Source: Polaromonas sp. (lineage in GTDB: Bacteria; Pseudomonadota; Gammaproteobacteria; Burkholderiales; Burkholderiaceae_C). From it: a DNA stretch of 64,000 nucleotides. A model generated the notes under the pieces. The model did not search any database, was not told where the DNA came from, and saw nothing but the letters and a program-made list of their open reading frames with translations. Positions 28,674 to 48,061 of this stretch are shown piece by piece (within the stretch, counting starts at the first letter, position 1; each line of letters begins with the position of its first letter). The position numbers and the translations under genes were made by a program. The stretch covers positions 2,743 through 66,742 of the forward strand of contig JANLPQ010000056.1 of assembly GCA_031367325.1 (NCBI GenBank). The letters are read 5' to 3'.

Positions 28674-28749
28674 GGCCCGGTAGCTCAGTCGGTAGAGCAG
28701 AGGATTGAAAATCCTTGTGTCGGTGGTTCGATTCCGCCCCAGGCCACCA
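28674..28749 (+). tRNA. tRNA-Phe (anticodon GAA)
   Basis: 76 nt cloverleaf: acceptor GGCCCGG, D-arm GCTC/GAGC, anticodon loop TTGAAAA, T-arm GGTGG-TTCGATT-CCGCC, 3' CCAGGCC-A-CCA. Acceptor pair 5:68 is a C:A mismatch. Confidence 0.95.
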
Positions 28750-28936
28750 TTTATTCATCTCCAGCAATCCATAGACACTTCGATAAGTTTTTGTGTGATC
28801 AGACTAGGCCGCAAAAGCTGCCAAATGGAATTGTTTGAGTCTGCGGCACTGCAAATTCAACAACGCTGCCAGAGACTGTGTATGTATTTCTTCAAGATTG
28901 TGGATTCATAGATGTTCAATTACTCCAACATAGTCG

Positions 28937-29434
28937 CTAGTCAAGCTCAATAATTGCAGCGCCGCACATCTGTGACAGTGCCATAACAACGATGGCGTGG
29001 TCTTTGCGTTGGGGAAGCCCTGATACTGTGACAACGCCCACGTTACCCATACCGATAACTTGAATTGGAAAACTTCCACCGTGCGAGGCGTAATCCCTTA
29101 GCGGCAACCCCATGCTTTCTTCTAGTGAGCCACCTTCGATTTGAAACGATAGTCCAACTCCATAAGAACTGCGATGCAACAACTCGACTGTATTGCGTTT
29201 GCGCCGCGCCCAGTCAGCGTTAGCAGGGGAAGTGCCAGACATAGCATGAAAAAAAACTGTTTCACATGACAATCTAATCTCAATGGCAACAGAAACTTTT
29301 TTAGCTGTACACATTTCATGAATGCTTGCACCAAGAATCCAAGCGGTTGCGTTATCAAAATGTGAAAAGACGAGAGATTTTTCTTGCGAAACAATACGTT
29401 CTAAGTCTTGTGTGATGGTAGTCATGGATTTCAT
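28937..29434 (-). CDS. UPF0303 family heme-degrading-domain protein
   Basis: 165 aa. The blocks ANADWARRKRNTVELLHRSSY and HGGSFPI...VTVSGLPQRKDH match the UPF0303/GlcG-like family as I recall it. Confidence 0.7.
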   Translation of the reverse strand: MKSMTTITQDLERIVSQEKSLVFSHFDNATAWILGASIHEMCTAKKVSVAIEIRLSCETVFFHAMSGTSPANADWARRKRNTVELLHRSSYGVGLSFQIEGGSLEESMGLPLRDYASHGGSFPIQVIGMGNVGVVTVSGLPQRKDHAIVVMALSQMCGAAIIELD

Positions 29435-29736
29435 TTTTAAAAATTACACGACCTAGATAGGTCTGAAATAATTGATATTGGTATGTTTTGGCCAAGCATT
29501 CACAAGACTTCCAAAAGCTTGTAAAAGTGCGGCACTATGAGCGTTTTCTAATGGTCGGCAGCATGACTTTGAATGCTTGTTTGGTGTAAGTTATTGGCCA
29601 CATCTTTGCGCTAGCAACACCTGCGAATCTGTTTAATCTATATGTTGCATCAGAGGCCCCGATGCAACGAAAGACGTTTTATCTTCGGGTATGCATGAGT
29701 TCAGCAGCATCAACGCCGAGTTTGCCATAGCTTTTG

Positions 29737-30912
29737 TTAATTGCTGATACCGCAGTGCACATACAGCCATTGGCGCATACGGGCACGGGCTAAATCTGGG
29801 TCACGTAAAACGCCGCATGCATCTGCCAGCTCAAATACGCGGGCGTAATGTGCTACGCCGCGCGCGGCCTGCAAGCCACCCGCCATAGAAAAATGCGCTT
29901 GGTGTCCGTTGAGCCAAGCTAAAAATATAACACCTGCTTTGTAATGGCGCGTTGGGGCCTTAAAAATCTCGCGGGACAAAGCTACAGTGGGGTCTAAAAG
30001 CGCGCGAAAACTTGCCTTGTTGCCTTTCGCAAGTTCTCCTAATGCCACGGCTGCGACAGGTGCTATTGGGTCGAAAATCCCCAGCAGTCCGTGCGAAAAA
30101 CCACTGTCGTCACCTTCTATCAATTCAGCGTAATTGAAATCATCTCCTGTGTACATCTTTACGCCCCCGGGCAATCTGCGGCGCAATTCAATCTCCCATT
30201 TAGCCTCTAGCAAAGATACTTTGATGCCCTCTACTTTAGATGTATTGGCGCGAATGAGTGCGGCCACCGTGTCAAGTGCTGTTGGTATGTCGCTTGAACC
30301 CCAGTAGCCTTTTAGAGCGGGATCGAACATTTCACCCAGCCAATGCAAAATGACGGGCTGGTCGCTATCCTGTAATAAGCGACCATAGACTTTGAAATAG
30401 TCATCTGCACTGACGGCTGCACGGGCCATGGCCCTACTGGCCATCAAAATGGCACGTCCACCCTCCGTTTGCACAACATCAAATTGCTCACGGTAGGCCC
30501 GCTCAACCTGGTCTAGAGTGACATCTGTACCAGCTACTAATTGGTCAGTGCCTACGCCACACGCCAAGTCGGCACCGGGCACAGTACGTGCATGGCGCAG
30601 CGAGCGCTGAATCAACTCACGCGCTACAGGCCAGTCCACGCCCATGCCACGTTGTGCTGTATCCATCGCCTCGGCAACACGAAACCCTAGACCATAAAGG
30701 TGGTCTCTAAAAGCCAGCGTGGTGTCCCAGTCTACTTTCGGTGAAGCATCAAAAGGATCTGTGGTGGCAATCGGGTCAATCACCAAATGTGCGGCAGCAA
30801 ATACGGTGCGGTTGAATGTGCCGACTGCCCCGACAGGGGTAATGGGCTGTCCTACCAAAGTGTATTTCTTGAGAGAACCGTCAGATCGGGGGAGTTGCAA
30901 AGTGTGCGACAT
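29737..30912 (-). CDS. DUF993 family protein (DapA-like TIM barrel)
   Basis: 391 aa. The block VDWDTTLAFRDHLYGLGFRVAEAMDTAQRGMGVDW matches the DUF993 signature as I recall it. Confidence 0.65.
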   Translation of the reverse strand: MSHTLQLPRSDGSLKKYTLVGQPITPVGAVGTFNRTVFAAAHLVIDPIATTDPFDASPKVDWDTTLAFRDHLYGLGFRVAEAMDTAQRGMGVDWPVARELIQRSLRHARTVPGADLACGVGTDQLVAGTDVTLDQVERAYREQFDVVQTEGGRAILMASRAMARAAVSADDYFKVYGRLLQDSDQPVILHWLGEMFDPALKGYWGSSDIPTALDTVAALIRANTSKVEGIKVSLLEAKWEIELRRRLPGGVKMYTGDDFNYAELIEGDDSGFSHGLLGIFDPIAPVAAVALGELAKGNKASFRALLDPTVALSREIFKAPTRHYKAGVIFLAWLNGHQAHFSMAGGLQAARGVAHYARVFELADACGVLRDPDLARARMRQWLYVHCGISN

Positions 30913-30927
30913 AGATTGTAATAACTA

Positions 30928-32541
30928 TCAAATTTTGCCGAGAATATGGTCTGCGCCTTTTTCAGCCACCATGATGGTGGGCGCATTGGTGTTGCAAGAG
31001 GGAACCCGTGGCATCACTGAAGCGTCTACTACGCGCAGGCCTTGAATGCCTATCAATTTAAGATCAGGCGTGACCACGCTAAGCGGATCGGCAGCCGCCC
31101 CCATCTTGCAAGTGCCTACCGGGTGATGGTCGGTTTTACTGTGCTGGCACGCATAGTCAAAAAGATCTGCATCGCTGGTCAAACCATCTCCAGGCAAAAC
31201 CTCGGATTTAACATAGCGCCTCAACGCAGGCTGGCGCAATAGCTCCCTTGCTAATCGCAGGCCTTTAATGGCCATTGTGCGGTCATGAGGGTCAGCCCAA
31301 TAATTAGGATCGAGCAAAGGTGCCTGCGCTGGGTCATTACTTGCCAGCCGCACTGTGCCACGTGAGCGGGGCCGAAGGTAGGCGGTATTCAAGGTAACAC
31401 CTGCGTTTTGCATCTTGGCCACACCCGCTTCAATTCCTGAACCTAGGCCGAGGTGGAATTGAATATCTGGTGAACGCGCTTTCTCTGCGGCATCGGCATA
31501 CCAAAAGCCACCGGTCTCAAACAAACTAGATGCCACAGGACCCTTCTTCAGCAGTAAATACTGAAGTCCTGCCCAAGCTGCATGGTGCGGCTTGTTGTAC
31601 TTATCGTAAGTATGGTCGCCCGTACATTCTGCAATCACAAACAGATCTAAATGGTCTTGTAAATTCTCACCTACACCCGGCAAGTCGTGCACCACGGGCA
31701 CCCCTACTGACTGCAGGTGGTTAGCAGGGCCAATGCCAGATTGCAACAGCAATTTGGGAGAACCCATCGCACCTGACGAAACTGCCACTTCGCGGTCGGC
31801 TAAGAGACGGATGGGTGAGTTTTTACCGCGTTGTAGTACTTCAACACCTACTGCGCGACCATTCTCAACCAACACCCGTGTTGCCATGGTTTGCATCATG
31901 ACCGTCAAGTTACTGCGACTTCGGATGGGGTGCAAGTAGGCTACAGACGTAGACGAGCGACGCGCGTTGAGCTGCGTCAGCTGGTAGTAGCCCAGCCCAG
32001 CTTGGTACTCTCCATTGAAATCAGGATTAAACGGAATGCCCAGTTCTTGTCCTGCTTGAAAGTAAGCTTCGCATATTGGCAGCGGACTGATGGGGTTAGA
32101 AACACCTAAAGGTCCGCTGTATCCATGGTAACGATTGGCATAGCGCTGGTTATTCTCAGAGCGCTTGAAATACGGCAGTACATCTTCGTAGCCCCAGCCC
32201 ACAGCACCTTCTTGCGTAACCCAATCATCGTAGTCAGCAGGCACACCGCGCGTATACAACTGCGCATTGATCGATGAACCTCCACCAATAACCTTGGCTT
32301 GGGTAAAACGTAAAACACGGTTTTTCAAATGTTTTTGAGGCACGGTATGCCACCCCCAAGAACCAATACCTTTGGTCATTTTGGCAAAACCTGCTGGCCA
32401 ATGAAAGAAGGGATGGCCGTCTGATCCGCCTGCTTCCAGCAAAAGCACTTTCACCTTAGGATCTTCACTGAGCCTATTTGCGAGTACGCAACCTGCAGAG
32501 CCACCCCCAGTGATGATGTAGTCGTAACTTGCGATTTTCAT
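30928..32541 (-). CDS. GMC family FAD-dependent oxidoreductase (choline/alcohol dehydrogenase-like)
   Basis: 537 aa with YDYIITGGGSAGCVLANRLSE and the C-terminal HPVGTCKMG block. Confidence 0.9.
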   Translation of the reverse strand: MKIASYDYIITGGGSAGCVLANRLSEDPKVKVLLLEAGGSDGHPFFHWPAGFAKMTKGIGSWGWHTVPQKHLKNRVLRFTQAKVIGGGSSINAQLYTRGVPADYDDWVTQEGAVGWGYEDVLPYFKRSENNQRYANRYHGYSGPLGVSNPISPLPICEAYFQAGQELGIPFNPDFNGEYQAGLGYYQLTQLNARRSSTSVAYLHPIRSRSNLTVMMQTMATRVLVENGRAVGVEVLQRGKNSPIRLLADREVAVSSGAMGSPKLLLQSGIGPANHLQSVGVPVVHDLPGVGENLQDHLDLFVIAECTGDHTYDKYNKPHHAAWAGLQYLLLKKGPVASSLFETGGFWYADAAEKARSPDIQFHLGLGSGIEAGVAKMQNAGVTLNTAYLRPRSRGTVRLASNDPAQAPLLDPNYWADPHDRTMAIKGLRLARELLRQPALRRYVKSEVLPGDGLTSDADLFDYACQHSKTDHHPVGTCKMGAAADPLSVVTPDLKLIGIQGLRVVDASVMPRVPSCNTNAPTIMVAEKGADHILGKI

Positions 32542-32675
32542 AGTTTTAGACGTTTTAAAATTAAAAATAATTTTTGTTGAACAATAGGGCCTAGTGATTA
32601 GCTTGAGATCAAATAGTTAACTCCATTCCATTGGTAGCGCCATTTTTTCTCAACAGCGCAATGGCGATTGGAGAT

Positions 32676-33443
32676 TCATAATCTTGGAATAGACAAAGCG
32701 CCATCCACATGGAGAACGCTTCCGGTCGAAAACCCCAGTTTTCCATCTATTAACGCAGCCACTGCTAGCGCAACATCTGTCGGGTATCCCCAGCGACCCA
32801 TGGGCACTAGGCCGTCGGCAATACGCTTGCTGTACACGGTGGATACGCTTTCTGTCATGGGTGTACGGATAACACCGGGGCGCACTTCAAATACGGCGAT
32901 ACCCAATGGCGCTAGTCTCAAGGCGAACAGCTTGGTCAGCATGCCAAGCCCTGCCTTGGAAACACAGTACTCCGCCCTCTCAATCGAGGCCAAGTCAACG
33001 CTCACCGAGGACACAGTCACTATCGATCTTGGGAAATCACATGCCGTTGTGGTCATATGAAGAGCTACTGTTTGTGTAAAGAAAAAGGTTCCCCGTAAAT
33101 TAACACCCAGCACGCGATCAAATGACTGCGCAGTCACATCCAAAATATCACCTCTTTGGGGCGCTGGAATGCCTGCGTTATTCACCAAGCAGGCTATAGG
33201 TCCACCCCATTGCTGTATTTCATCAACGACACTGCAGTGATCTTCCACGCGGCCAAGATCTGACACAAACAACCTTACGCTAGCGCCACGCCCCTCAAGA
33301 GCTCGTAGCGTTTCTTCGCAATCAGCGCTTTCGATGTCAGTCAATGCCAAGTTAAATCCACGCTCAGCCAGTTCTACAGCTATAGCAGCCCCAATACCTC
33401 GACGTGCACCGGTTACTATTGCCAAGGGGCGCTGCGGGTTCAT
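32676..33443 (-). CDS. SDR family oxidoreductase
   Basis: 255 aa with TGARRGIG cofactor motif and catalytic YCVSK. 4 nt overlap with the upstream GMC gene. Confidence 0.9.
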   Translation of the reverse strand: MNPQRPLAIVTGARRGIGAAIAVELAERGFNLALTDIESADCEETLRALEGRGASVRLFVSDLGRVEDHCSVVDEIQQWGGPIACLVNNAGIPAPQRGDILDVTAQSFDRVLGVNLRGTFFFTQTVALHMTTTACDFPRSIVTVSSVSVDLASIERAEYCVSKAGLGMLTKLFALRLAPLGIAVFEVRPGVIRTPMTESVSTVYSKRIADGLVPMGRWGYPTDVALAVAALIDGKLGFSTGSVLHVDGALSIPRL

Positions 33444-34960
33444 TGGAAAACTTCCTTGCGCAAATGGTTTCCAACACGCAAACCTTGTGCGGCAATGGTC
33501 AAAGCCGGGTTGACTGCCGCTGACGACGGGAAAAATCCAGCATCAACGACATATAAATTGTCGTGATCCCAAGCCTTGCAATTTGTGTCCAATGCAGAAG
33601 TTGCAGGGTCGTTGCCAAACCGTACGGTGCCACATTGGTGTGAAACTACATCAGTACCAAACGATTGGGCTAATACGATGGGATACCCTGTAGCACGTAG
33701 AATTTCTTTGCACTTAGCTACCCAACGACCATGGGCCTTTAGATTGCTGCGATGCCAATTGAGGTTGATGGCACCATCAGATCGGACAGTAACCCGACTA
33801 TCAGGATGGGGTAGGTCTTCACTTTGAGCGTACCAATCTACACTGCGTGATGCCAGTGCCGTGCGAATAAGTTTTGGCACTGATCGCAGCGGCCCGCGCA
33901 ACATAGGTTCACGGATTTTCCCTAGCAATTGGAGGCTACCTAGCGGTGTTGTAATCCCATCGCCACCAAAATAGTAATCGTGCACGGCCAAAGTTTTGGG
34001 GAATTGTGTGTCGTTAATTTTAAATGGATGGATGGCCATTAGCGCGCTGGTGTTGTGGGTCATGTAGTTGCGCCCCACAACATCAGAGCTGTTGGCTAAT
34101 CCTCTTGAGTTACTTGTATTAGCCGATCGCAACAACAGAGCAGCTGAATTAACCGCACCGGCACTTAAAACGAATGTATCTGCCGTAATTCTTTGATTTA
34201 TGCCATTAATCAGAACATCGACAGAAACGATTTTTCTTCCAGCAGGATCCGTCTGCAATTTTCGAACATATGCATTTGAAACCAGCTCGATATTCGAATG
34301 CTTCAAGGCGGGCTGAATTAATATAGTCTCAGCGTCGCCTTTAGCATCAATTTTGCATGGGAATGCATCACAATTTGCACATCGTTGGCATCGTCCTTTT
34401 GGGCCGTAATCCACTGCACTCGGCATAGAAAATGGTGTTAAACCCTGCGCACGCAATCGCTTTGCGATTTGGTCAATCATAGGCTCGTGAGGAATTGGCC
34501 CATGGGAATAAGGGGTGCTGCGTGGTGGATCTGTAGGGTCTACCCCAGCTTGTCCACGTACTCCAAACAAAGACTCTGCTTGGCAATACCAAGGCTCAAG
34601 ATCACCGTATTTGATAGGCCATGCAGGTGAAACACCCTCCTCATGCGTAAGCGAATCAAAGTCTTTTTCACGAAAACGAAACATCGCTGTACCGTAAAAC
34701 TTGGTATTGCCGCCTACGAAGTAAAACATACCAGGATTAAAGGGCCGTTCATTGGCCCACCAAGTCTCATTTGCATGGTAACGACGGTCGCAAAATACAG
34801 CCTCTGGCTGCCAATTTTGCGCCTCTCTGGGCATTACAGGACCACGCTCTAAAACCAATACCCGCGCATTACTACCAGCGAGTTGCAGCGCTACTGAGCC
34901 ACCGCCTACGCCAGAACCAATGATGACCACATCGTATGCTTGGTGTTTCATGGTAATCAT
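33440..34960 (-). CDS. GMC family FAD-dependent oxidoreductase (second, divergent paralog class)
   Basis: 506 aa with YDVVIIGSGVGGGSVA and C-terminal HQCGTVRFG...LYVVDAGFFPSS. 4 nt overlap with the ABC ATPase gene. Confidence 0.85.
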   Translation of the reverse strand: MITMKHQAYDVVIIGSGVGGGSVALQLAGSNARVLVLERGPVMPREAQNWQPEAVFCDRRYHANETWWANERPFNPGMFYFVGGNTKFYGTAMFRFREKDFDSLTHEEGVSPAWPIKYGDLEPWYCQAESLFGVRGQAGVDPTDPPRSTPYSHGPIPHEPMIDQIAKRLRAQGLTPFSMPSAVDYGPKGRCQRCANCDAFPCKIDAKGDAETILIQPALKHSNIELVSNAYVRKLQTDPAGRKIVSVDVLINGINQRITADTFVLSAGAVNSAALLLRSANTSNSRGLANSSDVVGRNYMTHNTSALMAIHPFKINDTQFPKTLAVHDYYFGGDGITTPLGSLQLLGKIREPMLRGPLRSVPKLIRTALASRSVDWYAQSEDLPHPDSRVTVRSDGAINLNWHRSNLKAHGRWVAKCKEILRATGYPIVLAQSFGTDVVSHQCGTVRFGNDPATSALDTNCKAWDHDNLYVVDAGFFPSSAAVNPALTIAAQGLRVGNHLRKEVFQ

Positions 34961-36072
34961 GCGATTAGCTTCTCAGTTTCTGCATCAAAGCACACTAATT
35001 TGGATAAATCCAGCAAAAATCTTGCATCCGCTCCAACCGTAACTCTTGCCTCAGGCTCTAGTCTTGCAGTAAATTCATACCCACCCAAATCCATGACGAT
35101 CAAGGTGTCAGCCCCTGTGGGTTCAATGACCTCAACGCGAGCGGTCACTGCGCGTTGCATGCTTGTTATCGCGACATCATCACGCGCTAGGCTAATGGCT
35201 TCAGCTCGGATGCCAACAATTACTTCTTTACCTAGGTACGCAGCCAAGCCTGCGGGCTTGCTGGGTAGTTCAATGGCGACTTTAGTGCGGTAGTCGTTTT
35301 GCAGTTCAATTACAAATACACCTGCTTGTTCTACCACCCGTCCTTTGACAAGGTTCATTCTGGGTGAACCCATGAAACTGGCTACAAAAGTATTGGCAGG
35401 GCGGTTATACACCTCGCTAGGCGCGCCAAGTTGTTGTACCACGCCACCCTTCATCACGGCAATACGTGTTGCTAGAGTCATAGCCTCAATTTGATCGTGG
35501 GTTACATAGACGATGGTGGATTTGAGCCGCTGGTGTAGTTTCTTGATTTCAGTACGCATATCTAAACGCAATTGCGCGTCAAGATTAGACAGCGGTTCAT
35601 CAAATAAGTACAGCTTAGGTTCGCGCGCTAAAGCACGGCCAATGGCGACCCGCTGGCGTTGACCGCCAGACAGCTGCTTAGGTTTGCGGTCCATCAGGTG
35701 CTCAATTTGCAACAGCTTCGCTACACTTTGAACGCGCTCAGTGCGAATCTCTTTAGCCACCTTGCGCATCTGCAATGGAAACTCAATATTCTTAGCCACT
35801 GTCATATTGGGGTAGAGCGCGTAAGACTGAAAGACCATAGAGATATTTCGCTCTGCAGGTGCCACATCTGTGATGTCTTGGCCATCAAGGCGCAACATAC
35901 CTCCACTGGGTTCTTCCAAACCCGCAATGATGTTCATCAGAGTGCTTTTACCGCAGCCGCTGGGGCCGACCAAAACTAAAAATTCACCATCAGACAAGGT
36001 AATAGAAACATCATGAAGGATTTGTACCGCACCAAAACTTTTTTTAATACTAATTAGATCAAGCGAAGACAT
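34957..36072 (-). CDS. Sugar ABC transporter ATP-binding protein (MalK/UgpC-like)
   Basis: 371 aa with Walker A GPSGCGKST, signature LSGGQRQR, Walker B LYLFDEPLS, and a C-terminal MalK-type regulatory domain. Confidence 0.93.
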   Translation of the reverse strand: MSSLDLISIKKSFGAVQILHDVSITLSDGEFLVLVGPSGCGKSTLMNIIAGLEEPSGGMLRLDGQDITDVAPAERNISMVFQSYALYPNMTVAKNIEFPLQMRKVAKEIRTERVQSVAKLLQIEHLMDRKPKQLSGGQRQRVAIGRALAREPKLYLFDEPLSNLDAQLRLDMRTEIKKLHQRLKSTIVYVTHDQIEAMTLATRIAVMKGGVVQQLGAPSEVYNRPANTFVASFMGSPRMNLVKGRVVEQAGVFVIELQNDYRTKVAIELPSKPAGLAAYLGKEVIVGIRAEAISLARDDVAITSMQRAVTARVEVIEPTGADTLIVMDLGGYEFTARLEPEARVTVGADARFLLDLSKLVCFDAETEKLIA

Positions 36073-36076
36073 GCTA

Positions 36077-36976
36077 TTACCCTTTGACTGAGCCGGCCAT
36101 CAGACCGCGCACAAAATATTTACCAGAAACCATATAGACCACCAATGTCGGCAAGGCCGCAATAAATGCTCCTGCAAAATGCACGTTGTATTCCTTAACT
36201 CCCGTAGAACTGCTTACTAAATTGTTCAGTGCTACCGTAAGGGGGAACGATGTGTAATCGCTGAAAGAAGCCCCAAACAAAAACTCATTCCAGATATTGG
36301 TGAACTGCCAAATGACGGTGACCACGATAATGGGGGCGCTGTTAGGCAACAGAATGCGAAATAGCACACCAAAAAAACCTGCGCCGTCCATGCGCGCAGA
36401 ACGCACCAATTCATTGGGAAACGCAGCATAGTAGTTTCTAAAAAACAGTGTGGTAAATCCAATACCGTAGACAACGTTCACGAAGACGAGTCCTTTTACA
36501 GTCCCAGCTAGTCCTAAAAAACCCAATGTTTTAGCCATGGGTATCAGAACAATTTGAAATGGTATAAAAACAGAAAAAAGCATGGCTGCAAAAATCAAAC
36601 TTGCACCACGCATATTGAACTGGGTCAAGATATAGCCATTGAATGCACCAATCAAAGTTGAGATAATGACTGCCGGCACCACCAGTAGGAACGAATTGAT
36701 AAAGTAAGGTTTCAGCCCTGTGGGCTGTACCCCAATCTGCGCTGTACTCCAAGCAGTCAGCCAAGGCTCAAACGTCCATGCTATTGGCATCGCCATTAAA
36801 TCGCCGCTGCGTATTTCGCCTAAGGGCTTGAGGGAGTTCACCAGCATGACATAGACTGGCAAAATGAAAAGAACAGCCGCAGCGACGAGAATCGCATACA
36901 ACACAAATCGTCCTAAATGCATTGTCCAGCGATTGCTCTTTGAACTGCCTAGCAGTACAGAGGGAGTGTTAGCCAT
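36077..36976 (-). CDS. Carbohydrate ABC transporter permease
   Basis: ORF to 37027. Likely start is the Met of MANTPSVLL (36976), overlapping the upstream permease stop. EAA-type loop SARMDGAGFFGVLFRILLP. Confidence 0.88.
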   Translation of the reverse strand: MANTPSVLLGSSKSNRWTMHLGRFVLYAILVAAAVLFILPVYVMLVNSLKPLGEIRSGDLMAMPIAWTFEPWLTAWSTAQIGVQPTGLKPYFINSFLLVVPAVIISTLIGAFNGYILTQFNMRGASLIFAAMLFSVFIPFQIVLIPMAKTLGFLGLAGTVKGLVFVNVVYGIGFTTLFFRNYYAAFPNELVRSARMDGAGFFGVLFRILLPNSAPIIVVTVIWQFTNIWNEFLFGASFSDYTSFPLTVALNNLVSSSTGVKEYNVHFAGAFIAALPTLVVYMVSGKYFVRGLMAGSVKG

Positions 36977-37835
36977 TTTTAACTTTCCGCATTTCGCTGT
37001 ATAAATAAGGCAGCACCACGACACCAATTGCCACCAGCATCAGTACCGAACTGGCAGCACCTATCGCCATCTCGTTGCGCGTGAATGTGTACTGATACAT
37101 GAACACCGAAGGCAACCAAGTGGAGCGGCCCGGGCCTCCGTTTGTAAGCGCAATTACCAAGTCGTAGGATTTAATAGCCATGTGTGCCAGTATTACAAAC
37201 GATGATACAAATACTGGGCCAAGTTGCGGAATGATGATGTGTAAATAGATCTGCCATGTCTTTGCGCCGTCTAGCCTTGCAGCATTGATTTGCTCTGAGT
37301 CCACACCACGTAAACCGGCTAGAAACATTGCCATTACGAAGCCGGCGGTCTGCCAGACAGCGGCGATGACCACGCAATAAATGGCCATTTCAGAGCTTTT
37401 AATCCACCCAAAAGTGAAATTGTCCCAGCCTAAGCCTTGTATGGTGTGCTCTAAACCCACACCCGGATCTAACAGCCACTTCCAAGCAGTCCCCGTGACG
37501 ATAAAAGACAAAGCCATCGGGTATAAAAAGATAGATCGGAACGCACTTTCAGCCCGAACTTTTTGATCTATCAAAATTGCCAGTGCCAAGCCAATAGCCA
37601 TAGCAAAAACAATATATAAACTGGCAAAAACCCACAAATTCGACAATGAAACTGCCCAGTTTTCCAAGCCGATCAAGCGGCTGTAATTTGCGCTACCAGC
37701 CCACTCATAAGAAGGCATCATCGTAGAACTGGTGAACGACAAATACACAGTGAACATGATGTATCCATACACACATAACAGTACCAAAATAGTACTGGGA
37801 CTGAGCAATAGCTTGGGCAAGAGTCCGGCACGCAT
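36969..37835 (-). CDS. Carbohydrate ABC transporter permease
   Basis: 288 aa multi-TM protein with EAA-type loop AARLDGAKTWQIYLHIIIPQLGP. Confidence 0.9.
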   Translation of the reverse strand: MRAGLLPKLLLSPSTILVLLCVYGYIMFTVYLSFTSSTMMPSYEWAGSANYSRLIGLENWAVSLSNLWVFASLYIVFAMAIGLALAILIDQKVRAESAFRSIFLYPMALSFIVTGTAWKWLLDPGVGLEHTIQGLGWDNFTFGWIKSSEMAIYCVVIAAVWQTAGFVMAMFLAGLRGVDSEQINAARLDGAKTWQIYLHIIIPQLGPVFVSSFVILAHMAIKSYDLVIALTNGGPGRSTWLPSVFMYQYTFTRNEMAIGAASSVLMLVAIGVVVLPYLYSEMRKVKNG

Positions 37836-37871
37836 AACTCAATTCCTTTTCATATTTATTGCAGGGAGAAC

Positions 37872-39210: not shown

Positions 39211-39317
39211 AAAATATCTCCGATTTAGTAAATAAACAGGGCATCGACTTCGTTAGCCCCAGTGGTATGCCACACGAATATGGCGTGAACATTCAAACTG
39301 CTACCAGTTCAAATGAA

Positions 39318-40838
39318 TTACTTTTGCGCTGCGCGCGGGATGTACCAGTCGGTACGTGACCCTAGGTGCATATGCAATGTTTTGGTTTCTGTGTAATCCT
39401 CGGTTGCAAAGCGACCCAGCTCGCGGCCAATACCGCTCTCGCGGTAGCCCCCAAATGGCAACTCTGCGTGGCCCTCCAGAAAAGTGTTGATCCAAATAGT
39501 GCCCGCCTTAATGCGACGTGCTGCCGTCATGCAAGTATTAAAGTCTTGACTCCAAACTGCAGCAGACAAGCCATACAAAGTACTGTTAGCCAGATCGATA
39601 GCCTCATCCAGAGTTTTAAAAGTCAGTACGGCCAATACAGGGCCAAATACTTCTTCGCGCGCAATGGCCATGTCTCGGGTTACACCAGTCACCACGGTGG
39701 GTTCTATGTACATGCCAATGCCTGCGATACGTGCACCCCCAAGCTCTACTCTGGCTCCCTGCTCTTGAGCGCAGCGAATGTGGGCAAGGATAGTTTCTAG
39801 TTGTCTTTCAGTGGTGATAGCGCCTACTTGAATGCCTGCAAGCAATGGATCGCCTACTTTGACCAACCTTGACCGAGCAATAACCTCTGCTACAAATCTT
39901 GGCGCGATGGACTCTTGCACCAAGATGCGACTGCCACTGTTGCAACATTGGCCCGCATTGAAGTAGATTCCGTAGACGGCAGCATCCACTGCAGCGTCCC
40001 AATCGCAATCTGCAAAGATAATTTGCGGATTTTTTCCGCCCAGTTCCATAGATACTTTTTTCAAGGTGGCGGCTGATTTAGCAACTGCCGCTTTGCCGAT
40101 AGCGGTAGAGCCTGTGAACGACAACATGTCAACATCTGCATGTGTCACCATGACTTCACCAACGATGTTTCCTTGGCCTACCAGTATATTGACTACCCCT
40201 GCAGGCACGCCTGCATCGATCAGGATTTGGCCCAGCATGACGGTGGAGCCTGAAGTAACTTCTGCTGGCTTAACTACGGCCGTACAACCTGCCGCCAAGG
40301 CAAAGGGTAATTTTTGGCTGACGATGAGAAAAGGGAAATTCCATGGAGTGATCACGCTGACCACGCCAATAGGATCGCGCAATACAACGCCTAAAGTATT
40401 TTCACCCAAGGTGTTGTAGCTATCGCCATGCAGATTACGCGCTAACGTCGCAGCGTAGTGCCAAAGGTCTGCGGCTCCTTCCACTTCGGCCAACGATTGG
40501 GCTAGTGGCTTGCCATTTTCTAAAGTCTCAATTTGCGCAATAGTGTGCTTACGTTCAAGAATGAGATCTGCCACTTTGCGCAAAATTCTGGCACGATCAG
40601 CGCCTTTCATGCGAGGCCAAGGGCCGTGGTCAAACGCCTTACGTGCAGCAGCGATTGCCAACTTGGTGTCTGCTGCACTCGCTTGTGCATAGACTGCTAC
40701 CAATTGATCGTGTGCTGGTGATTTGCGTTGCAGTTTACTTCCATCAATAGCATCTACCCATACACCATCAATCAGTAATTTTCCTTCGAATGGTGGACTG
40801 CTAGATAAGTCTGCTGCGGTAAGAGGTAGTGTGCTCAT
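39318..40838 (-). CDS. Aldehyde dehydrogenase family protein
   Basis: 506 aa with catalytic Glu block ELGGKNP and Cys block FNAGQCCNSGSR. Confidence 0.93.
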   Translation of the reverse strand: MSTLPLTAADLSSSPPFEGKLLIDGVWVDAIDGSKLQRKSPAHDQLVAVYAQASAADTKLAIAAARKAFDHGPWPRMKGADRARILRKVADLILERKHTIAQIETLENGKPLAQSLAEVEGAADLWHYAATLARNLHGDSYNTLGENTLGVVLRDPIGVVSVITPWNFPFLIVSQKLPFALAAGCTAVVKPAEVTSGSTVMLGQILIDAGVPAGVVNILVGQGNIVGEVMVTHADVDMLSFTGSTAIGKAAVAKSAATLKKVSMELGGKNPQIIFADCDWDAAVDAAVYGIYFNAGQCCNSGSRILVQESIAPRFVAEVIARSRLVKVGDPLLAGIQVGAITTERQLETILAHIRCAQEQGARVELGGARIAGIGMYIEPTVVTGVTRDMAIAREEVFGPVLAVLTFKTLDEAIDLANSTLYGLSAAVWSQDFNTCMTAARRIKAGTIWINTFLEGHAELPFGGYRESGIGRELGRFATEDYTETKTLHMHLGSRTDWYIPRAAQK

Positions 40839-40873
40839 AGTGATCTTAATTAAATTTAAGTTGCGACTGTTGC

Positions 40874-41653
40874 TTAACGGCCAAGATAATGAGGTTTACG
40901 TTTTTCACGAAAACTGTTGATGCCTTCTGCGGCATCTTGGGTGGTAGCAGCCAATGCCCCTGCCATAGCTTCCAAAGTTGCCGCTGCGTCTTCGCCTGAA
41001 GACGCATTGATTAACTGCTTGGTAAGCTGCATGGAAACAGGGGCTTTGCTGGCCATCTCTTGCGCTAGTTCGTACGCTCTGCCCAGCAGGTTGCTCGAAT
41101 CGACTACCTCGTGTACCAAGCCAGTTCTGAGAGCATCACCCGCATGGAGTCTTTGTCCGCTTAAAGCCAAGTATTTTGCATGGCTTGCTCCAACCAAACG
41201 CACTAATCTTTGGGTGCCCGACCATCCTGGACAGGTTGCAATAGATGCCTCTGGCAATGCAAACTGTGCGCCATCAGACGCTATGCGCACGTCGCCCACA
41301 ATTGCCAGCTCAAGACCGCCTCCAAATGCATGACCATTGATAGCGCTAATCACTGGCTGGCGCAGCCGTGCCCATTGGTCAAATACTTGGTGACCACGGC
41401 GCACCCAGTTACGCCACATGTCCAGCGGCTCTAGCGAAGCCCACTCGTTGATGTCAGCACCTACACAAAATGCTTTGTTGCCCGATCCCGTCAAGATGAT
41501 GACTCGCACCACGGCATCTGCCTCCAGTTCACGGGCGCAGTTCTCTAGCTGGTTCAGCATCGCAGATGTCAAGCTATTGAGCTTGGCTGGCCGGTTCAAT
41601 GTCACTGTTGCAATCTCGCCATCACAGACCAGTTCAATGAATTTTTCAACCAT
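40874..41653 (-). CDS. Enoyl-CoA hydratase/isomerase family protein
   Basis: 259 aa crotonase fold (FCVGADI, INGHAFGGGLELA). 8 nt overlap with the CoA-transferase gene. Confidence 0.9.
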   Translation of the reverse strand: MVEKFIELVCDGEIATVTLNRPAKLNSLTSAMLNQLENCARELEADAVVRVIILTGSGNKAFCVGADINEWASLEPLDMWRNWVRRGHQVFDQWARLRQPVISAINGHAFGGGLELAIVGDVRIASDGAQFALPEASIATCPGWSGTQRLVRLVGASHAKYLALSGQRLHAGDALRTGLVHEVVDSSNLLGRAYELAQEMASKAPVSMQLTKQLINASSGEDAAATLEAMAGALAATTQDAAEGINSFREKRKPHYLGR

Positions 41654-43244
41654 GATGGGCCTTATGAGGTTTAAGTGTTAGCCCAAAAGGTATGTCACGG
41701 TACAGTGCTGCGTCCATGAGGCACAGATTGGGACTGACACGCAGTGACATATCTGCTTGGTCAAGCACATCACGCTGCAAATCTATGCCTGGCGCAATTT
41801 CACGGATTACCAGTGCGTCATGTTCAAGGTCGATCACACAACGCTCAGTCACATACGTCACTCTTTGGCCGCGCTGTCTACCGATCACGCCACTGAAGGT
41901 AATGTGCCCAGAAGTTTTAACAAACTTTCGCGTTTTTCCCTCTTTGATAATGGTCAGCTTGCCATCGCCCACTTGGAGCTCGGCGCCTGCTGTAAAGAAA
42001 CCCGAAAATACGATGTGACGCGCATGGGCTGATATGTCTACAAATCCGCCGCAGCCAGCAGTGAGGTAAGGTTTAGCCTCTAGCTTGGACACATTGACAC
42101 TGCCGTTTTCATCGACTTGCAAGAACGACAGCAAGGTGGTGTCAAACCCAGCGCCTTGAAAATAGGTAAACTGATATGGCGAAGCCATGATGGCATCCGC
42201 ATTTGATGCACAGCCAAATGCAAACCCTAGCAACGGCATACCGCCTACGGCACCTTGCTCGATTGTCCAAGTAACTTGTCCGTGCAAACCTTCTTCTAAA
42301 AGGATGCGCGGCACGTTGGCCGATATGCCGAACCCCAGGTTTACTGCCGAGCCTTGGGCCAATTCCATAGCGGCTCTTCGTGCAATGACCTTCTCGGGTC
42401 CAAAAGCTTGCATTTCAAATGATTGCAATGGCTGCGCAATCTCGCCACTGATCGCAGGGTCGTAGGGGGTTTGGGTGGTTTGCCACTGGTCTGGGTCCAC
42501 CACAATGAAATCCACCAAGTTGCACGGTATGCGCACATCGTGCGGGCGCAGGCTGCCCGCTTTCACCAAGCGCTTAACCTGCGCTATGACAATGCCGCCG
42601 TTGTTGCGCGCAGCAAGCGCTTGGTCTAACCCACCCAACAACGCACCTTCGTGTTCGTAGGTTAAATTACCGTTTTCGTCAGCTGTGGTGGCCCGAATGA
42701 TGGCGACATGGGGTGCAATTGCGGGGAAATACAGCCACTCCTGGCCATCAAAATTTTCTTTACGCACAACGGGTTTGGCCGCTGCCGCTGCATTCATCGC
42801 GCAACCTTGAAAGGCGGGATCGACAAAGGTACCTAAGCCGATTTTGGTCAATACCCCCGGCCGTTTTGCAGCGGCATCGCGGTGCATGTCAAACAGTATG
42901 CCGCTGGGGATGTTGTAAGCTTCTATTTGATTGTCTACCACCATACGCCATATGGCGGGCATGGGCATGGATGACGGCCCACTAGGGTAGGAGCCTGCCA
43001 GCACACGGCTGAGTAGACCGGGCTTGGCAATATGGTCAATGCCCTTGATGCCATACATGTCACCTGCAGCGATGGGGTTGAGCGAAGTGAGATTGCTAGG
43101 CGCACCCTCTGCATCAAAGCGCTCGCCCAAGGCTTGTAGCACCTTGTCTGGACAGCCCAAGCCACTACTCGAGCTAATGCTGACGACATCGTTATTTTTG
43201 ATTAACTGAGCAGCTTGGGCTGCTGTAATGACCTTGTTTTTCAC
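41646..43244 (-). CDS. Acyl-CoA:acetate/3-ketoacid CoA-transferase (fused family I, YdiF-like)
   Basis: 532 aa with fused alpha/beta halves and a catalytic-Glu-type motif VDENGSVNVS. Confidence 0.8.
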   Translation of the reverse strand: MKNKVITAAQAAQLIKNNDVVSISSSSGLGCPDKVLQALGERFDAEGAPSNLTSLNPIAAGDMYGIKGIDHIAKPGLLSRVLAGSYPSGPSSMPMPAIWRMVVDNQIEAYNIPSGILFDMHRDAAAKRPGVLTKIGLGTFVDPAFQGCAMNAAAAAKPVVRKENFDGQEWLYFPAIAPHVAIIRATTADENGNLTYEHEGALLGGLDQALAARNNGGIVIAQVKRLVKAGSLRPHDVRIPCNLVDFIVVDPDQWQTTQTPYDPAISGEIAQPLQSFEMQAFGPEKVIARRAAMELAQGSAVNLGFGISANVPRILLEEGLHGQVTWTIEQGAVGGMPLLGFAFGCASNADAIMASPYQFTYFQGAGFDTTLLSFLQVDENGSVNVSKLEAKPYLTAGCGGFVDISAHARHIVFSGFFTAGAELQVGDGKLTIIKEGKTRKFVKTSGHITFSGVIGRQRGQRVTYVTERCVIDLEHDALVIREIAPGIDLQRDVLDQADMSLRVSPNLCLMDAALYRDIPFGLTLKPHKAHHG

Positions 43245-43256
43245 CCTGAGCTCCGT

Positions 43257-44363
<1,107 letters not shown>

Positions 44364-44385
44364 CTAGGGAAAACACCTAAACGCT

Positions 44386-45402
44386 ATGAATGACAACCCA
44401 TCTCCCTCACGCGCAATTACGATCGTGCAAGTTGCTGCAGAGGCCAACGTATCCAAATCCACCGTTTCTTTGGTTCTCAAAGGTAGCCTCTTGATCAAGG
44501 GAGACACTGCCGAGCGGGTTCGCGCTGCCGCCATCAAGCTGGGCTATGTTTACAACCGTCGTGCGGGTGAGCTAAGGGGCAATGCATCGAACGCCATAGG
44601 GGTCATCATCAATGACTTGATGAATCCATTTTTCGCAGAAATTCTGGTGGGTATTGAACGCAAGCTAGTCGAGGCAGGCTATGTGGTTTTGATGGCGCAC
44701 ACCAATGAAAGTGTAGAAATCCAAACGAAAGTTTTGATGTCTATGCGTGAGCAAAATGCAGCCGGAATCCTGTTATGCCCCGCACTCAACACACCACGTA
44801 CATTGCTAAAAGCCATCGAGTCTTGGGGCATTCCACTGGCTGTGTTTGTGCGTAACTTAGGGCCAGGAGATTACGACTTTGCAGGCTCGGATAATGAACT
44901 CGGCGTGTCTTTAGCCACCACACATTTACTCAACGCTGGGCACACCAAAATTGCTTTTTTAGGCGGCCTAAAAGGTGTGGTGCAAACCCAGAGGCTAGCA
45001 GGCTTCAAGGCTGCTTTAGCTAAAAAGTCTATGGCTTTTGATGCTGATTGGGTGCTACCCGCCAAACCCAATCGGCAGGGCGGCTACGACACTATGAGTG
45101 CACTGCTGAGCCAAAAAACAGACGTTACTGCGGCTGTGTGTTACAACGATATCGTCGCATTTGGTGCTCTGTCCGCATTAGGTGAGCGTGGCCTTCGTGC
45201 GGGATCAGACTTTGCATTGATTGGGTTTGACAATGTACTGGACTCAGCCCATTCCAATCCACCGCTGAGCACAGTGGATATTCGACCCAGCGAGCTGGGA
45301 GAGCAATGTGCACAAGTTTTATTGCACCGGATCCGAAATCCCGGCGCAGACCGTCAACTCTATTTGGCTACACCAAGCTTGTTATTGCGGCAAACGGCTT
45401 AA
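44386..45402 (+). CDS. LacI family transcriptional regulator
   Basis: 338 aa with N-terminal HTH VTIVQVAAEANVSKSTVSLVLKG and a periplasmic-binding-protein-like sugar-binding core. Confidence 0.93.
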   Translation: MNDNPSPSRAITIVQVAAEANVSKSTVSLVLKGSLLIKGDTAERVRAAAIKLGYVYNRRAGELRGNASNAIGVIINDLMNPFFAEILVGIERKLVEAGYVVLMAHTNESVEIQTKVLMSMREQNAAGILLCPALNTPRTLLKAIESWGIPLAVFVRNLGPGDYDFAGSDNELGVSLATTHLLNAGHTKIAFLGGLKGVVQTQRLAGFKAALAKKSMAFDADWVLPAKPNRQGGYDTMSALLSQKTDVTAAVCYNDIVAFGALSALGERGLRAGSDFALIGFDNVLDSAHSNPPLSTVDIRPSELGEQCAQVLLHRIRNPGADRQLYLATPSLLLRQTA

Positions 45403-45427
45403 ATAAGCTAAGCGCGGCCGGTAAATA

Positions 45428-45565
45428 GGATTCGAACCACACCTGATCGAAAACACAACATTTCTGCGCCTGTACCCCAGTCTGTAACCTAACTTTTACA
45501 AAAAAACCGAGATCCAATGCCGATGCGGGTGACAGAGGATTTTTCGAAGTGGCCCCAGGCCACCA
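45428..45565 (+). repeat. Direct repeat DR1 (att-like; ends in a decayed tRNA-Phe 3' half)
   Basis: About 138 nt, alignable with 47924-48061. It ends CAGAGGATTTTTCGAAGTGGCCCCAGGCCACCA, and its last 13 nt are identical to tRNA-Phe 28737-28749. Confidence 0.8.
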
Positions 45566-46141
45566 TTTCTTTTTCTCAGACGATCCCATGACAGCCCAGC
45601 AAGTCCTTTTCGCTCCAAGGATTTAGCCTGTAAAAGCTGCTCAAGCGGACCCGTTTGATTCCACAGCCTCCTAAATTTATCCCTAACTTGCACGTTTGCA
45701 ACCGGGGTACTGCTGTGAGTACGGTTTTTGCTCTGTTCTATATTAGGCTTAATAAGTCAACCCACTTCGCTGGAGATTGTCTGCCCGTTTCATATGCAAA
45801 AACCCAGTCTTTTTGTCTATTTTTGCATATGATTTGGGCACGTCTCGGAGTGCCTTTGGCCATACCAGCCATCCGGCGCTTATTCGCATGTGGGATAAGC
45901 GCCAGCGTGGTTATCGGGCGATGGGGTATCGTATTGGATCGACTGTTGTCGACCCCGCAATTGAGTCCGAAATAGAGCTACATTTTTCGGACAAATGAGC
46001 CGCACTCCAAGGAAAGTGTTCTCCGCTTTACTCGAGAGACACTGATTAAATAATGCGTCTAAAGTAATGCATGGATATAATAAAGAGACGAAATTCAATC
46101 TTAACCTTGAATTTGTTTGGCATATGTGCTATTTTGCAAAT

Positions 46142-46900
46142 ATGGATACAACTCCACGATACGCTTTAATCAAAAATCTTCAGATCAGTTTGCCGCGCGG
46201 GATGCCGTTCGACCTGGCCGCTTTGGAGCGTATAGAAGTGTCTGCCCAACTGGCGGCGCACTACGTTGAAAGCGGCTGGCTAGACCGATTGGGTCAAGGC
46301 ATCTATGCGTTTGCCGGTGACACCTTGACAGCGCACGGTGCTGTCAAGTTGCTGCAAACACGCGTCACGGGTTTGCATGTGGGCGGCAAAAGCGCCCTCG
46401 CGCTGCAGGGCGTACGCCACAACCTCGCGAGACAGGAAACACTGGTGCTGTGGGGTGATGCACGCTTCACGCTGCCAGAGTGGTTTACATCGCGATTTCC
46501 ATCGCGGTATGTGGCCGCTCAATTGTTCGGCACGCTAGAAGCAGGGCAGCTTGCTAAAAGTCTGACCACGCCGCCTGGCGTGAGCGATGGTTTGCGCGTC
46601 TCTGTCCCAGAGCGCGCCGTGCTTGAATTGCTGTACGACGTTGGTACACACCAAGGCTTAGAAGAGGCACGTAATCTATTCGATGGCGTGCGCAATCTGC
46701 GCAAAGATGTTTTAGGCGGGTTATTGCAATCTTGCACCAGCGTCAAAACCATCCGCCTGTTTTTGACCTGGGCACGCGAAACCAGCTTGGTCGACGTCGA
46801 GGCCTTGCGGCGCGACTACGTTTTGCCCGTCGGCAGCGAGAAACGATGGATCAGCCGCATGAAAGATGGCCAGCTACTGAGTCTGCAACCCTATGGATAA
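46142..46900 (+). CDS. Type IV toxin-antitoxin system AbiEi family antitoxin
   Basis: ORF from 46067; likely start is MDTTPRYALIKNL (46142). The N-terminal winged-helix pattern ...AAHYVESGWLDRLGQGIYAF fits AbiEi. 8 nt overlap with the downstream AbiEii gene. Confidence 0.75.
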   Translation: MDTTPRYALIKNLQISLPRGMPFDLAALERIEVSAQLAAHYVESGWLDRLGQGIYAFAGDTLTAHGAVKLLQTRVTGLHVGGKSALALQGVRHNLARQETLVLWGDARFTLPEWFTSRFPSRYVAAQLFGTLEAGQLAKSLTTPPGVSDGLRVSVPERAVLELLYDVGTHQGLEEARNLFDGVRNLRKDVLGGLLQSCTSVKTIRLFLTWARETSLVDVEALRRDYVLPVGSEKRWISRMKDGQLLSLQPYG

Positions 46901-47807
46901 AACCTATGCCGATACCGTACGCTTGCTACTGAGCGTAGCGCCCGATGTATTTGCCAACAACATCTTCGCGATGAAAGGCGGTACGGCCATCAACCTGTTT
47001 GTGCAAGACATGCCGCGACTGTCAGTCGATATCGATGTGGTCTACACGCCGTGGCAAACGCCGCGCGAACAAGCCTTGAAAGCCATTAGCGATGAGCTTG
47101 ACGCTATCGCAGCTCAACTGAGCCGATCAGGTCTCAGCACACGCAAGGTTCACTCCAAGGATCTAAGTGAAACCAAACTACTGATCGACAATGCCGACAC
47201 ACAGGTCAAGGTTGAAGTCAATGCGGTTTTTCGAGGCACGGTGCTCCCTGTCGAGCAGCATCCCTTGAGCCCGAAGACCGCCGATCTGTTCAGTGTAGCC
47301 CTAGAACTACCAATTCTGGCACCTGCAGAGTTGTACGGCAGCAAACTGGTCGCTGCAATGGATCGCCAGCATCCTCGTGATTTGTTCGACGTGTTGAAAA
47401 TGTTCGAATCTGGCGGCTTGTCGGATGCAGCCGTGGAATGCTTCGTGACCTACCTGGCTGGACACAACCGACCTATCCACGAGGTGCTGTTCGGCAACGA
47501 AAAAGACATCACTCATGAGTACCATCAGCATTTCGTTGGTATGACCATGGAGTCGGTAGGTCTTGACGTGTTGCTGGAGACACGCACCCGTTTGCGCGAG
47601 GAGCTTGCGCAGCAGCTAACAGAAAAGCATAGGCAGTTCTTGATAGGTTTAGCCCGCGCACAGCCTGATTGGACATTGCTCCAGTGCCCCCATGCGTCGG
47701 AGCTACCCGCACTGCGCTGGAAATTGAATAACTTGCAAACCTTCAGCCAGCGTCGGCCTGCAGACTTTGAGCAGCAAGCATCAACGCTAGAGAGGTTGCT
47801 GGGTTAA
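46893..47807 (+). CDS. Nucleotidyltransferase AbiEii/AbiGii family toxin
   Basis: 304 aa with NTase motifs MKGGTAINLF and LSVDIDVVY, typical of AbiEii. Confidence 0.85.
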   Translation: MDKTYADTVRLLLSVAPDVFANNIFAMKGGTAINLFVQDMPRLSVDIDVVYTPWQTPREQALKAISDELDAIAAQLSRSGLSTRKVHSKDLSETKLLIDNADTQVKVEVNAVFRGTVLPVEQHPLSPKTADLFSVALELPILAPAELYGSKLVAAMDRQHPRDLFDVLKMFESGGLSDAAVECFVTYLAGHNRPIHEVLFGNEKDITHEYHQHFVGMTMESVGLDVLLETRTRLREELAQQLTEKHRQFLIGLARAQPDWTLLQCPHASELPALRWKLNNLQTFSQRRPADFEQQASTLERLLG

Positions 47808-47923
47808 GTTACGGTCAGCTGATCGAAGTCGCTCTTTAACTTGGCCAATTACCATCGTTTCGAAAGCGTGTTTTTCCGTGCAATGATGGATTCAGTCACT
47901 GGTTCAAACTGCTTGTGGTCTAT

Positions 47924-48061
47924 GTTTCGAGTCCACTTCTCGCTGTAAAAACAACGACTGAAGGGTTGTACCCCAGCCTGTACCCCAACTTTTACAAAAA
48001 AGTTGAAACCTAGCGCTGGTGGGGCTTCCCAAGGATTTTGCGAAGTGGCCCCAGGCCACCA
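47924..48061 (+). repeat. Direct repeat DR2 (att-like; ends in a decayed tRNA-Phe 3' half)
   Basis: Alignable with DR1. Contains TGTACCCCA-GCC-TGTACCCCA and ends AAGGATTTTGCGAAGTGGCCCCAGGCCACCA. Confidence 0.8.

Follow-up and report, generated by a model that had tools for sequence, protein, structure and literature searches.

We analysed a window of 64,000 nucleotides from a Polaromonas species (GenBank assembly GCA_031367325.1, contig JANLPQ010000056.1, positions 2,743 to 66,742 of the forward strand), in which a tRNA-Phe gene is followed by two genomic islands arranged in tandem. The tRNA-Phe(GAA) gene (28674-28749, + strand) is intact, was recognised by ARAGORN and Rfam (66 bits against a gathering score of 29) and forms the attL of the array; behind it lie island 1 (28750-45565; 16.8 kb), with a catabolic and transport cluster, and island 2 (45566-48061; 2.5 kb), which encodes AbiEi and AbiEii, each ending in a copy of the last nucleotides of the tRNA. 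The 13-mer CCCCAGGCCACCA, which the original prediction had described as recurring twice downstream in the same orientation, is indeed found without mismatch at 28737, 45553 and 48049, always on the + strand, but the full common core is 14 nt long (GCCCCAGGCCACCA). The first core copy (28736-28749) covers tRNA positions 63-76, the second (DR1; 45552-45565) is the attI at the internal junction of the two islands, and the third (DR2; 48048-48061) is the attR, followed by native chromosomal flank in a junction identical to that of the empty sites in two related contigs (L001, L002). Because positions 59-62 of the tRNA differ between the DR copies and the gene, the crossover is placed within positions 63-76. 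Allowing one mismatch, the window holds four matches to CCCCAGGCCACCA against 0.09 expected; the fourth, at 25555, lies within a histidine-kinase gene, is conserved there in relatives and is a coincidence. DR2 leads directly, as had been proposed and as sequence and Pfam agree, into a native bidirectional terminator hairpin (GGGCCGTC TTTCG GACGGCCC plus a T-run; 48066-48097), which in relatives stands directly 3' of tRNA-Phe, and into ompW (48116-48781, - strand; Pfam OmpW). The windowed composition check that had been suggested also gave a positive result: GC content and tetranucleotide usage deviate across 28-48 kb, the GC content being 0.497 in island 1 and 0.519 in island 2, whereas the flanks next to the array have 0.558 and 0.560.

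The same site was found both empty and occupied in related genomes. An identical protein sequence of the response regulator upstream of the tRNA is encoded on many metagenome contigs, and in eight of the ten places listed it is followed by tRNA-Phe, the AAATGCAAAAGGGCCG terminator, ompW, a GDSL lipase and an S13 peptidase, so that the two flanks of the window (82% identity on the left, 84-91% on the right) are joined exactly at the end of the core. The empty junction is thus exactly the one predicted, but its tRNA carries A68 and not the expected G68. Compared with L001, the left flank (17864-28749) is 82% and the right flank (48062-58000) 91% identical, a difference that may reflect a recombination breakpoint at the hot spot. 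Two other loci (L003, L004) have an integrase gene of 428 aa directly after the same tRNA (Arm-DNA-bind_3, Phage_int_M and Phage_integrase domains; NCBIfam PRK09692-like), followed by AlpA, DUF2274 and the Trb/VirB genes TrbI, TrbG, TrbF, TrbL and TrbE, and their first ~60 nt past the core resemble the flank to the right of DR1. Trb genes were seen only in related loci (L003, L004, L110, L115, L123, L141 and L142). Exact-protein look-ups with OmpW, Fur, LacI, the HbpS-like protein and AbiEii returned only short Logan contigs, apparently of the same strain, which break near the repeats and are uninformative about polymorphism.

The sequences beside the cores are related as well. To the left of the core, DR1 and DR2 had been reported to align for about 125 nt; BLAST aligns 95 nt at 79% identity (E = 2e-18), which is significant, and the likeness is weaker in the remainder, out to about 125-200 nt in multiple alignments. 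Both of these right (distal) arms (45403-45551 in island 1 and 47808-48047 in island 2, both +) carry, 58 nt to the left of the core, a tandem TGTACCC-N5-TGTAMCC motif (TGTACCC-N5-TGTAACC at 45471-45489, TGTACCC-N5-TGTACCC at 47967-47985), which a window-wide scan did not find in the rest of the window; the same tandem is present between the tRNA and the start codon of int in L003 and L004. These tandems are putative arm-type integrase sites. A search for the structural pattern of tandem motif, 50-75 nt and core yielded 48 metagenome loci at tRNA-Phe attR sites, the core being present in all of them by design; in many of the 48 the identity to the tRNA is lengthened to 23 nt (TTCGATTCCGCCCCAGGCCACCA), four are preceded, at a distance of a few kb, by TrbI-DUF2274, and several continue directly with a second left arm or an integrase gene, i.e., they are tandem arrays. 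The exact 21-mer CGAAGTGGCCCCAGGCCACCA gave zero matches in a first metagenome scan. The combination of a tandem TGTACCC motif with the tRNA-Phe core provides a searchable att architecture for a widespread family of freshwater and soil elements in Comamonadaceae. To the right of the core, the proposed likeness between the flank of the tRNA and that of DR1 holds in a fixed register (18/28 matches, binomial p = 4e-5), but no similarity between the two was detected by BLAST.

The further claim that each downstream core terminates a decayed 3' half of tRNA-Phe was not upheld. The identity of the DR1 arm to the tRNA consists of the 14-nt core and TTCGA, the CAGAGGATT match in DR1 is not common to DR2 or to the rest of the family, and beyond the core of 14-23 nt no tRNA-likeness was found by Rfam at E <= 1 in the arms of the window or in ten related arms, so that we rejected the arms as decayed tRNA copies. 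A T-arm-like motif occurs in the right arms of the window (45423-45445, 47897-47915) and of L118 and L142, where it precedes the core by ~130 nt; it reads GTGGTTCGAATCCAC in L118 and L142, GTTTCGAGTCCAC at DR2 and, inverted, GGATTCGAACCAC at DR1, and is not called a tRNA by Rfam. The left arms contain a short hairpin ~35-50 nt past the core (window 28750-28830 and 45566-45650; L003 10890-10950) with differing stems (ACTT/AAGT in island 1, TCCTT/AAGGA in island 2, TCCTTG/CAAGGA in L003), which may be a substitute for the tRNA terminator or a protein-binding site.

No integrase lies between the repeats, as the original prediction had stated. A tblastn search with the integrase and AlpA from the same site in relatives gave no match in the whole window, and an integrase pseudogene could likewise be rejected for lack of any tblastn trace beside the tRNA or DR1. 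Pfam searches on all island ORFs yielded metabolic, transport and AbiE genes only, with no integration or excision genes, and revealed no conjugation or mobilisation genes, type IV secretion system (T4SS) or relaxase in 28750-48061. Since neither a T4SS nor a relaxase is encoded, the array is not an integrative and conjugative element (ICE), which in its Trb/MPF-T form would have genes for a T4SS, a coupling protein and a relaxase. It shares with P4-type islands an insertion at the 3' end by which an intact tRNA is restored, a repeat of the tRNA end at the far boundary, an empty site and an atypical composition; the integrase adjoining the tRNA is missing in the window and present in L003 and L004. 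With cis-mobilisable elements (CIMEs) it shares all structural features, i.e., flanking att sites, the absence of integration and transfer genes, and att sites related to those of an ICE at the same target, although the last relationship is weak for the left arm of island 1.

We consider it probable that the locus arose by tandem, CIME-like accretion at a hot spot, the 3' end of tRNA-Phe, of two att-flanked units without integrase, and that the acceptor mismatch of the tRNA, discussed below, is native. The proposal of two successive insertions into the tRNA-Phe 3' end is supported by the empty sites and by the integrase-bearing ICE with a homologous arm at the same site. In this scenario the tRNA-Phe 3' end serves a family of elements with P4-like tyrosine integrases that have an N-terminal arm-binding domain, and some of these elements are Trb-type conjugative elements. 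The attP of an element, 14-23 bp identical to the tRNA 3' end and flanked by arms with TGTACCC tandems, would recombine with the tRNA, regenerate the gene and deposit a core copy at the far end. Both islands would be CIME-like remnants, because neither has an integrase, an excisionase or transfer genes, and for any further movement they would need the integrase of a related element integrating alongside, either by composite excision in cis or by recombination in trans. In which order the two units integrated, and by what route their integrase modules disappeared, we can only infer. It is reasonable to regard the islands as fossils or as mobilisable only in trans, as had been suggested; for the type of element represented by island 2 there are indirect indications of horizontal spread.

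Several observations weigh against this interpretation. The left arm of island 1 resembles the family in only the 18 of 28 nt that escaped BLAST and has no TGTACCC tandem; the cargo of this island diverges from its congeners (81.6%) about as much as the core genome does (about 82%), and in the congeners the cluster sits at an ordinary chromosomal locus. Cargo divergence at the core-genome level and an ordinary locus in congeners together mean that island 1 may lack a simple descent from a self-mobile element. Furthermore, the relatives with empty sites are congeners and not members of the same species, TGTACCC is regarded as an integrase-binding site from its position and recurrence only, and none of the elements recovered was complete, with an integrase and both arm types of island 2.

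The non-coding left arm of island 2 (45566-45857, +) shares 86-89% identity with its counterparts in elements of this type from other hosts (blastn; L147, L148, L119, L003 and L004), and over its first ~60 nt it is similar to the arm that separates tRNA-Phe from int in the ICE. There follow a remnant comprising the last 47 codons of a gene for an archaeo-eukaryotic primase (AEP)/helicase of 804 aa (45855-45995, +; tblastn 78.7% identity to residues 758-804 in L147), an AbiEi antitoxin/regulator gene (46142-46900, +; Pfam AbiEi_3_N and AbiEi_3, PADLOC AbiEi; 94.8% identity to AbiEi of L147), whose mechanically called ORF starts at 46067 but for which homologues suggest 46142, and the gene of the AbiEii nucleotidyltransferase toxin of a type IV toxin-antitoxin/abortive infection system (46893-47807, +; Pfam, PADLOC), with homologues of 83-94% identity in other Comamonadaceae elements. 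The overlapping pair (Pfam PF17194, PF11459 and PF08843; PADLOC AbiEi 1e-64, AbiEii 3e-115) shows the adjacent AbiEi and AbiEii genes that define AbiE type IV systems. The same genes recur in an integrase-less element of 4.9 kb consisting of left arm, primase-helicase, AbiEi, AbiEii and right arm. In L148-L151 the order is response regulator, tRNA-Phe, left arm, 804-aa AEP primase/helicase, AbiEi, AbiEii, right arm and core, beyond which the left arm is repeated and an EVE-domain protein follows; in L147 a phage-like element with an integrase of 325 aa and a 46-nt tRNA-Phe 3' fragment precede the 4.9 kb unit, the core, the GDSL lipase and the S13 peptidase. In blastn comparisons island 2 is collinear with the elements of L147 and L148-L151 except for a deletion of ~2.4 kb in the primase-helicase gene, and represents a deletion derivative of the 4.9 kb element. 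The elements in L147 and L148-L151 likewise have no integrase and stand in tandem arrays at tRNA-Phe. One of the latter, L148 (6260-11500), contains two successive integrase-less units with left arms that are 94% identical (235/250 nt), the second of which carries the EVE-domain protein. AbiE fragments were also noted between TrbL and attR in L142. Ramlibacter sp. 2FC was considered as a complete ICE with the AbiE of island 2 at tRNA-Phe and rejected, its integrase being 28% identical and not located at tRNA-Phe; in this unrelated ICE an intact AbiE pair stands directly after trbI-DUF2274.

The element of island 2 is 93% identical to that of L147 and 85% to that of L148, compared with 76-77% only for the flanking chromosomal genes. 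Since the identity of the element exceeds that of the flanks, this suggests that the integrase-less AbiE unit has moved between hosts. It raises the alternative that the islands are not remnants but working hitchhikers, i.e., CIMEs in the full sense, which would be moved by the integrase and the conjugation machinery of the tRNA-Phe ICEs, after accretion or in trans. Besides the contrast in identities, which includes the left arm at 86-89%, it agrees with this alternative that one integrase-less architecture occurs in three host backgrounds with both arms intact and always in tandem arrays, that two such units follow each other in L148 with nearly the same left arm, that integrase-bearing ICEs occupy the same tRNA in the same metagenome series, and that Streptococcus provides documented cases of CIME accretion and cis-mobilisation (PMC5704250, PMC6323972). 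On the other hand, no composite of an ICE and an element of the AbiE type was recovered, the copy in the window has no primase-helicase gene, the left arm of island 1 is decayed, and the higher identity could partly stem from selection on the toxin-antitoxin genes. We regard working CIMEs as a serious possibility, though somewhat less probable than not. More tentatively still, the primase-helicase/AbiEi/AbiEii unit could be a dedicated integrase-less hitchhiker of the conjugative elements at tRNA-Phe in Comamonadaceae. If so, att arms of ~300 nt and ~200 nt would be maintained under selection, and the unit would borrow the P4-like integrase of neighbouring ICEs, spread between species and build tandem arrays free of integrases; the last 14-23 nt of tRNA-Phe, A68 included, would then possibly co-evolve with the element pool, which could hinder a repair of C5:A68 from the 3' side.

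The left (tRNA-proximal) arm of island 1 (28750-28936, +) is weakly related to the left arms of the family, without an integrase gene or a TGTACCC tandem, and no other part of the array is as weak. The cargo (28937-45402, - strand; Pfam) encodes an HbpS-like protein, DUF993, two GMC oxidoreductases and an SDR, a sugar-type ABC transporter (ATPase, two permeases and binding protein), and an aldehyde dehydrogenase, an enoyl-CoA hydratase, a CoA-transferase and a Gfo/Idh/MocA oxidoreductase, as well as a divergent LacI regulator (44386-45402, +). The segment 34337-45402 is collinear with contigs of congeners at 81.6% identity; there LacI is followed by hexR and zwf, and the homology stops exactly at the LacI stop codon. 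The cargo is a normal catabolic cluster of Comamonadaceae that in this lineage lies between att sites. One could thus argue for a single true integration, with island 1 being a chromosomal catabolic cluster that recombined into an att-flanked remnant or was captured between duplicated arms, as its core-genome level of divergence, the hexR-zwf neighbourhood in congeners and the sharp end of the homology at the LacI stop would agree with, and as the weak left arm and the absence of remnants of mobility genes would allow. However, the right arm of island 1 has tandem sites and a perfect core and is only 79% identical to the arm of island 2, so that it is not a recent duplicate; its left flank keeps the register of the family beside the core, and tandem arrays of separate units are common in the family. 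We therefore judge a single integration to be improbable, and prefer the accretion of two units.

The tRNA itself had been the starting point of the original prediction, and its structure is as described there. The acceptor strands (5' GGCCCGG, 3' CCAGGCC) face each other with a C:A mismatch at 5:68 in an otherwise canonical fold, on which sequence, ARAGORN and RNAfold agree; the minimum free energy structure is the cloverleaf with a 1x1 mismatch (-27.6 kcal/mol, compared with -32.3 for a U5 variant). Cloverleaf and GAA anticodon are thus those of a canonical tRNA-Phe, whereas the acceptor stem is not fully paired. We compared 78 tRNA-Phe genes, i.e., those adjoining an orthologue of the response regulator in GTDB species representatives and related metagenome contigs, together with that of the window, a set that spans Comamonadaceae and neighbouring Burkholderiales. 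The best GTDB match of the response regulator of the window has an identity of only 79%. The combination of the window, GGCCCGG/CCAGGCC (C5:A68), is found in 52 of the 78 (Polaromonas, Hydrogenophaga, Acidovorax, Limnohabitans, Comamonas, Ottowia, Simplicispira, Tepidicella, Hylemonella and others), GGCCTGG/CCAGGCC (U5:A68) in 16/78 (Ramlibacter, Methylibium, Rubrivivax, Leptothrix and others), and GGCCAAG/CTTGGCC (A5:U68) in 8/78 (Rhizobacter, Caldimonas and Piscinibacter); GGCCTGG/CCGGGCC (U5:G68) and GGCCCGA/CCAGGCC (also C5:A68) occur in one gene each, from an uncultured betaproteobacterium (L028) and from Limnohabitans sp. WS1 (L069), respectively. With C5:A68 in the majority and U5:A68 in 16 genes, it is position 5, outside the att core, that varies from genus to genus. 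Within the genera Ramlibacter, Ottowia and Comamonas, position 5 toggles between C and U and A68 is constant.

It had been argued that the native gene was C5:G68 and that an integrated element supplied a 3' end with A68, thereby creating the mismatch. It is true that, after integration, whatever lies to the right of the crossover in the tRNA gene should in principle stem from the element, and all three cores have A68. But A68 is present in every empty-site relative, all of which are C5:A68, the only G68 among the 78 genes is paired with U5, and DR2, which should hold the original chromosomal 3' end, has A68 too; we thus consider an element-borne origin of the mismatch extremely improbable. Relatives with A68, the same downstream genes and no repeats, which had been named as a refutation, do exist: they remove the argument from the mismatch, but the same contigs are the empty sites that speak for integration. 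As all empty-site relatives are C5:A68, the comparison indicates that the mismatch is native and old, that it predates the insertions and is the usual form of tRNA-Phe in most Comamonadaceae, and that the element cores match it; this lineage-wide C5:A68 tRNA-Phe is a functional form. A literature search found no account of a conserved C:A pair in the acceptor stems of bacterial tRNA-Phe, which is not proof of novelty. An acceptor mismatch beside att repeats is no proof of damage by an element unless relatives are compared, and the retention of C5:A68 over many genera is a small, testable curiosity of tRNA biology. The D-arm region of the gene (28679-28698) contains a direct repeat with a 12-nt period (CGGTAG...CGGTAG), the period also of the TGTACC...TGTACC tandems in the two right arms; this may be a coincidence or a clue to the origin of the arm sites. 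Finally, the idea that the repeats of ~100-140 nt have no connection with site-specific recombination, and represent a local duplication or a dispersed repeat of a generic kind, can be dismissed, as nothing beyond their bare existence speaks for it, while such arms occur in the window only at DR1 and DR2 and, ending in the tRNA-Phe 3' core, at every occupied locus read (L147-L154), and both empty and integrase-occupied sites exist.

Some further observations concern related loci and the remainder of the window. In another bacterium (L107, 1-6478), a stretch of 6.2 kb without an integrase, which encodes Septu PtuA/PtuB, a truncated helicase and a PIN toxin-antitoxin pair, lies between a tRNA-Phe (U5:A68) that has its own terminator and, downstream, an attR of the family type; it is another integrase-less defence island. 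In L091 (10850-10990) the tRNA-Phe gene is followed, 126 bp downstream, by a second copy of its 3' half, which extends from the anticodon stem to CCA and is a minimal att remnant. A near-perfect palindrome of 71 nt in L130 (2339-2410) matches Rfam mir-1791 on both strands with 47 bits, below the gathering score, and we rejected this identity as an artefact of the hairpin shape. In the window, the homology to L001 stops at 56252, just past a PIN toxin gene, where L001 continues with a class I aminoacyl-tRNA synthetase gene; the following at least 7.7 kb (56253-64000) of low GC content (0.43-0.51), encoding lipoprotein-like hypothetical proteins, look like a second insertion. Within them ARAGORN called a tRNA-Pro(CGG) at 58282-58358, with the anticodon at position 37, which overlaps an ORF of 474 aa on the opposite strand, was not reported by Rfam at the gathering score and is probably a false positive.

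The locus belongs to a known kind, i.e., leftovers of mobile elements without integrase, arranged in tandem at a tRNA. ICEMlSymR7A of Mesorhizobium and the pheV/pheU islands of enterobacteria have P4-type integrases, normally encoded beside the tRNA, and insert at the 3' end of tRNA-Phe, which restores the gene and leaves a short direct repeat of its end at the far boundary. The window differs from them in having no integrase and in a core specific to the tRNA-Phe of Comamonadaceae, including A68. Known AbiE type IV systems correspond to the overlapping gene pair of island 2; they are cargo only, which explains persistence and defence but not the array. The tycheposons of Prochlorococcus form arrays of elements and remnants separated by partial tRNAs (bioRxiv 10.1101/2020.12.28.424599), and there, too, successive integrations at one tRNA, with degenerate remnants, cargo and primase/helicase modules, build up an island. 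They belong, however, to another phylum and another integrase lineage, whereas the complete elements related to ours include Trb-type conjugative ones and the repeats in the window are cores of 14-23 nt with long conserved arms. None of these findings alters current concepts, and the finding is ordinary in kind; its more interesting by-products are the family-wide C5:A68 tRNA-Phe and the apparently mobile integrase-less AbiE element. The closest parallel is that of the CIMEs associated with ICESt1/ICESt3 of Streptococcus thermophilus (Pavlovic 2004; Bellanger 2011; PMC5704250; ICEberg 2.0, PMC6323972), which have likewise kept attL and attR and lost the genes for integration and transfer. They, too, form tandem arrays with related elements, in which neighbours have an internal att site in common, an arrangement that is documented (PMC5704250, PMC6323972), and are expected to move only via the integrase of a neighbour. 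In contrast to them, the host of the window is a proteobacterium (Comamonadaceae), the target is a tRNA 3' end and not the fda gene, the integrase family is P4-like with putative arm-type sites, and both units of the array, whose mobilisation is hypothetical, are without an integrase. The locus adds a case from the proteobacteria to the tandem accretion of CIME-like units at tRNA genes.

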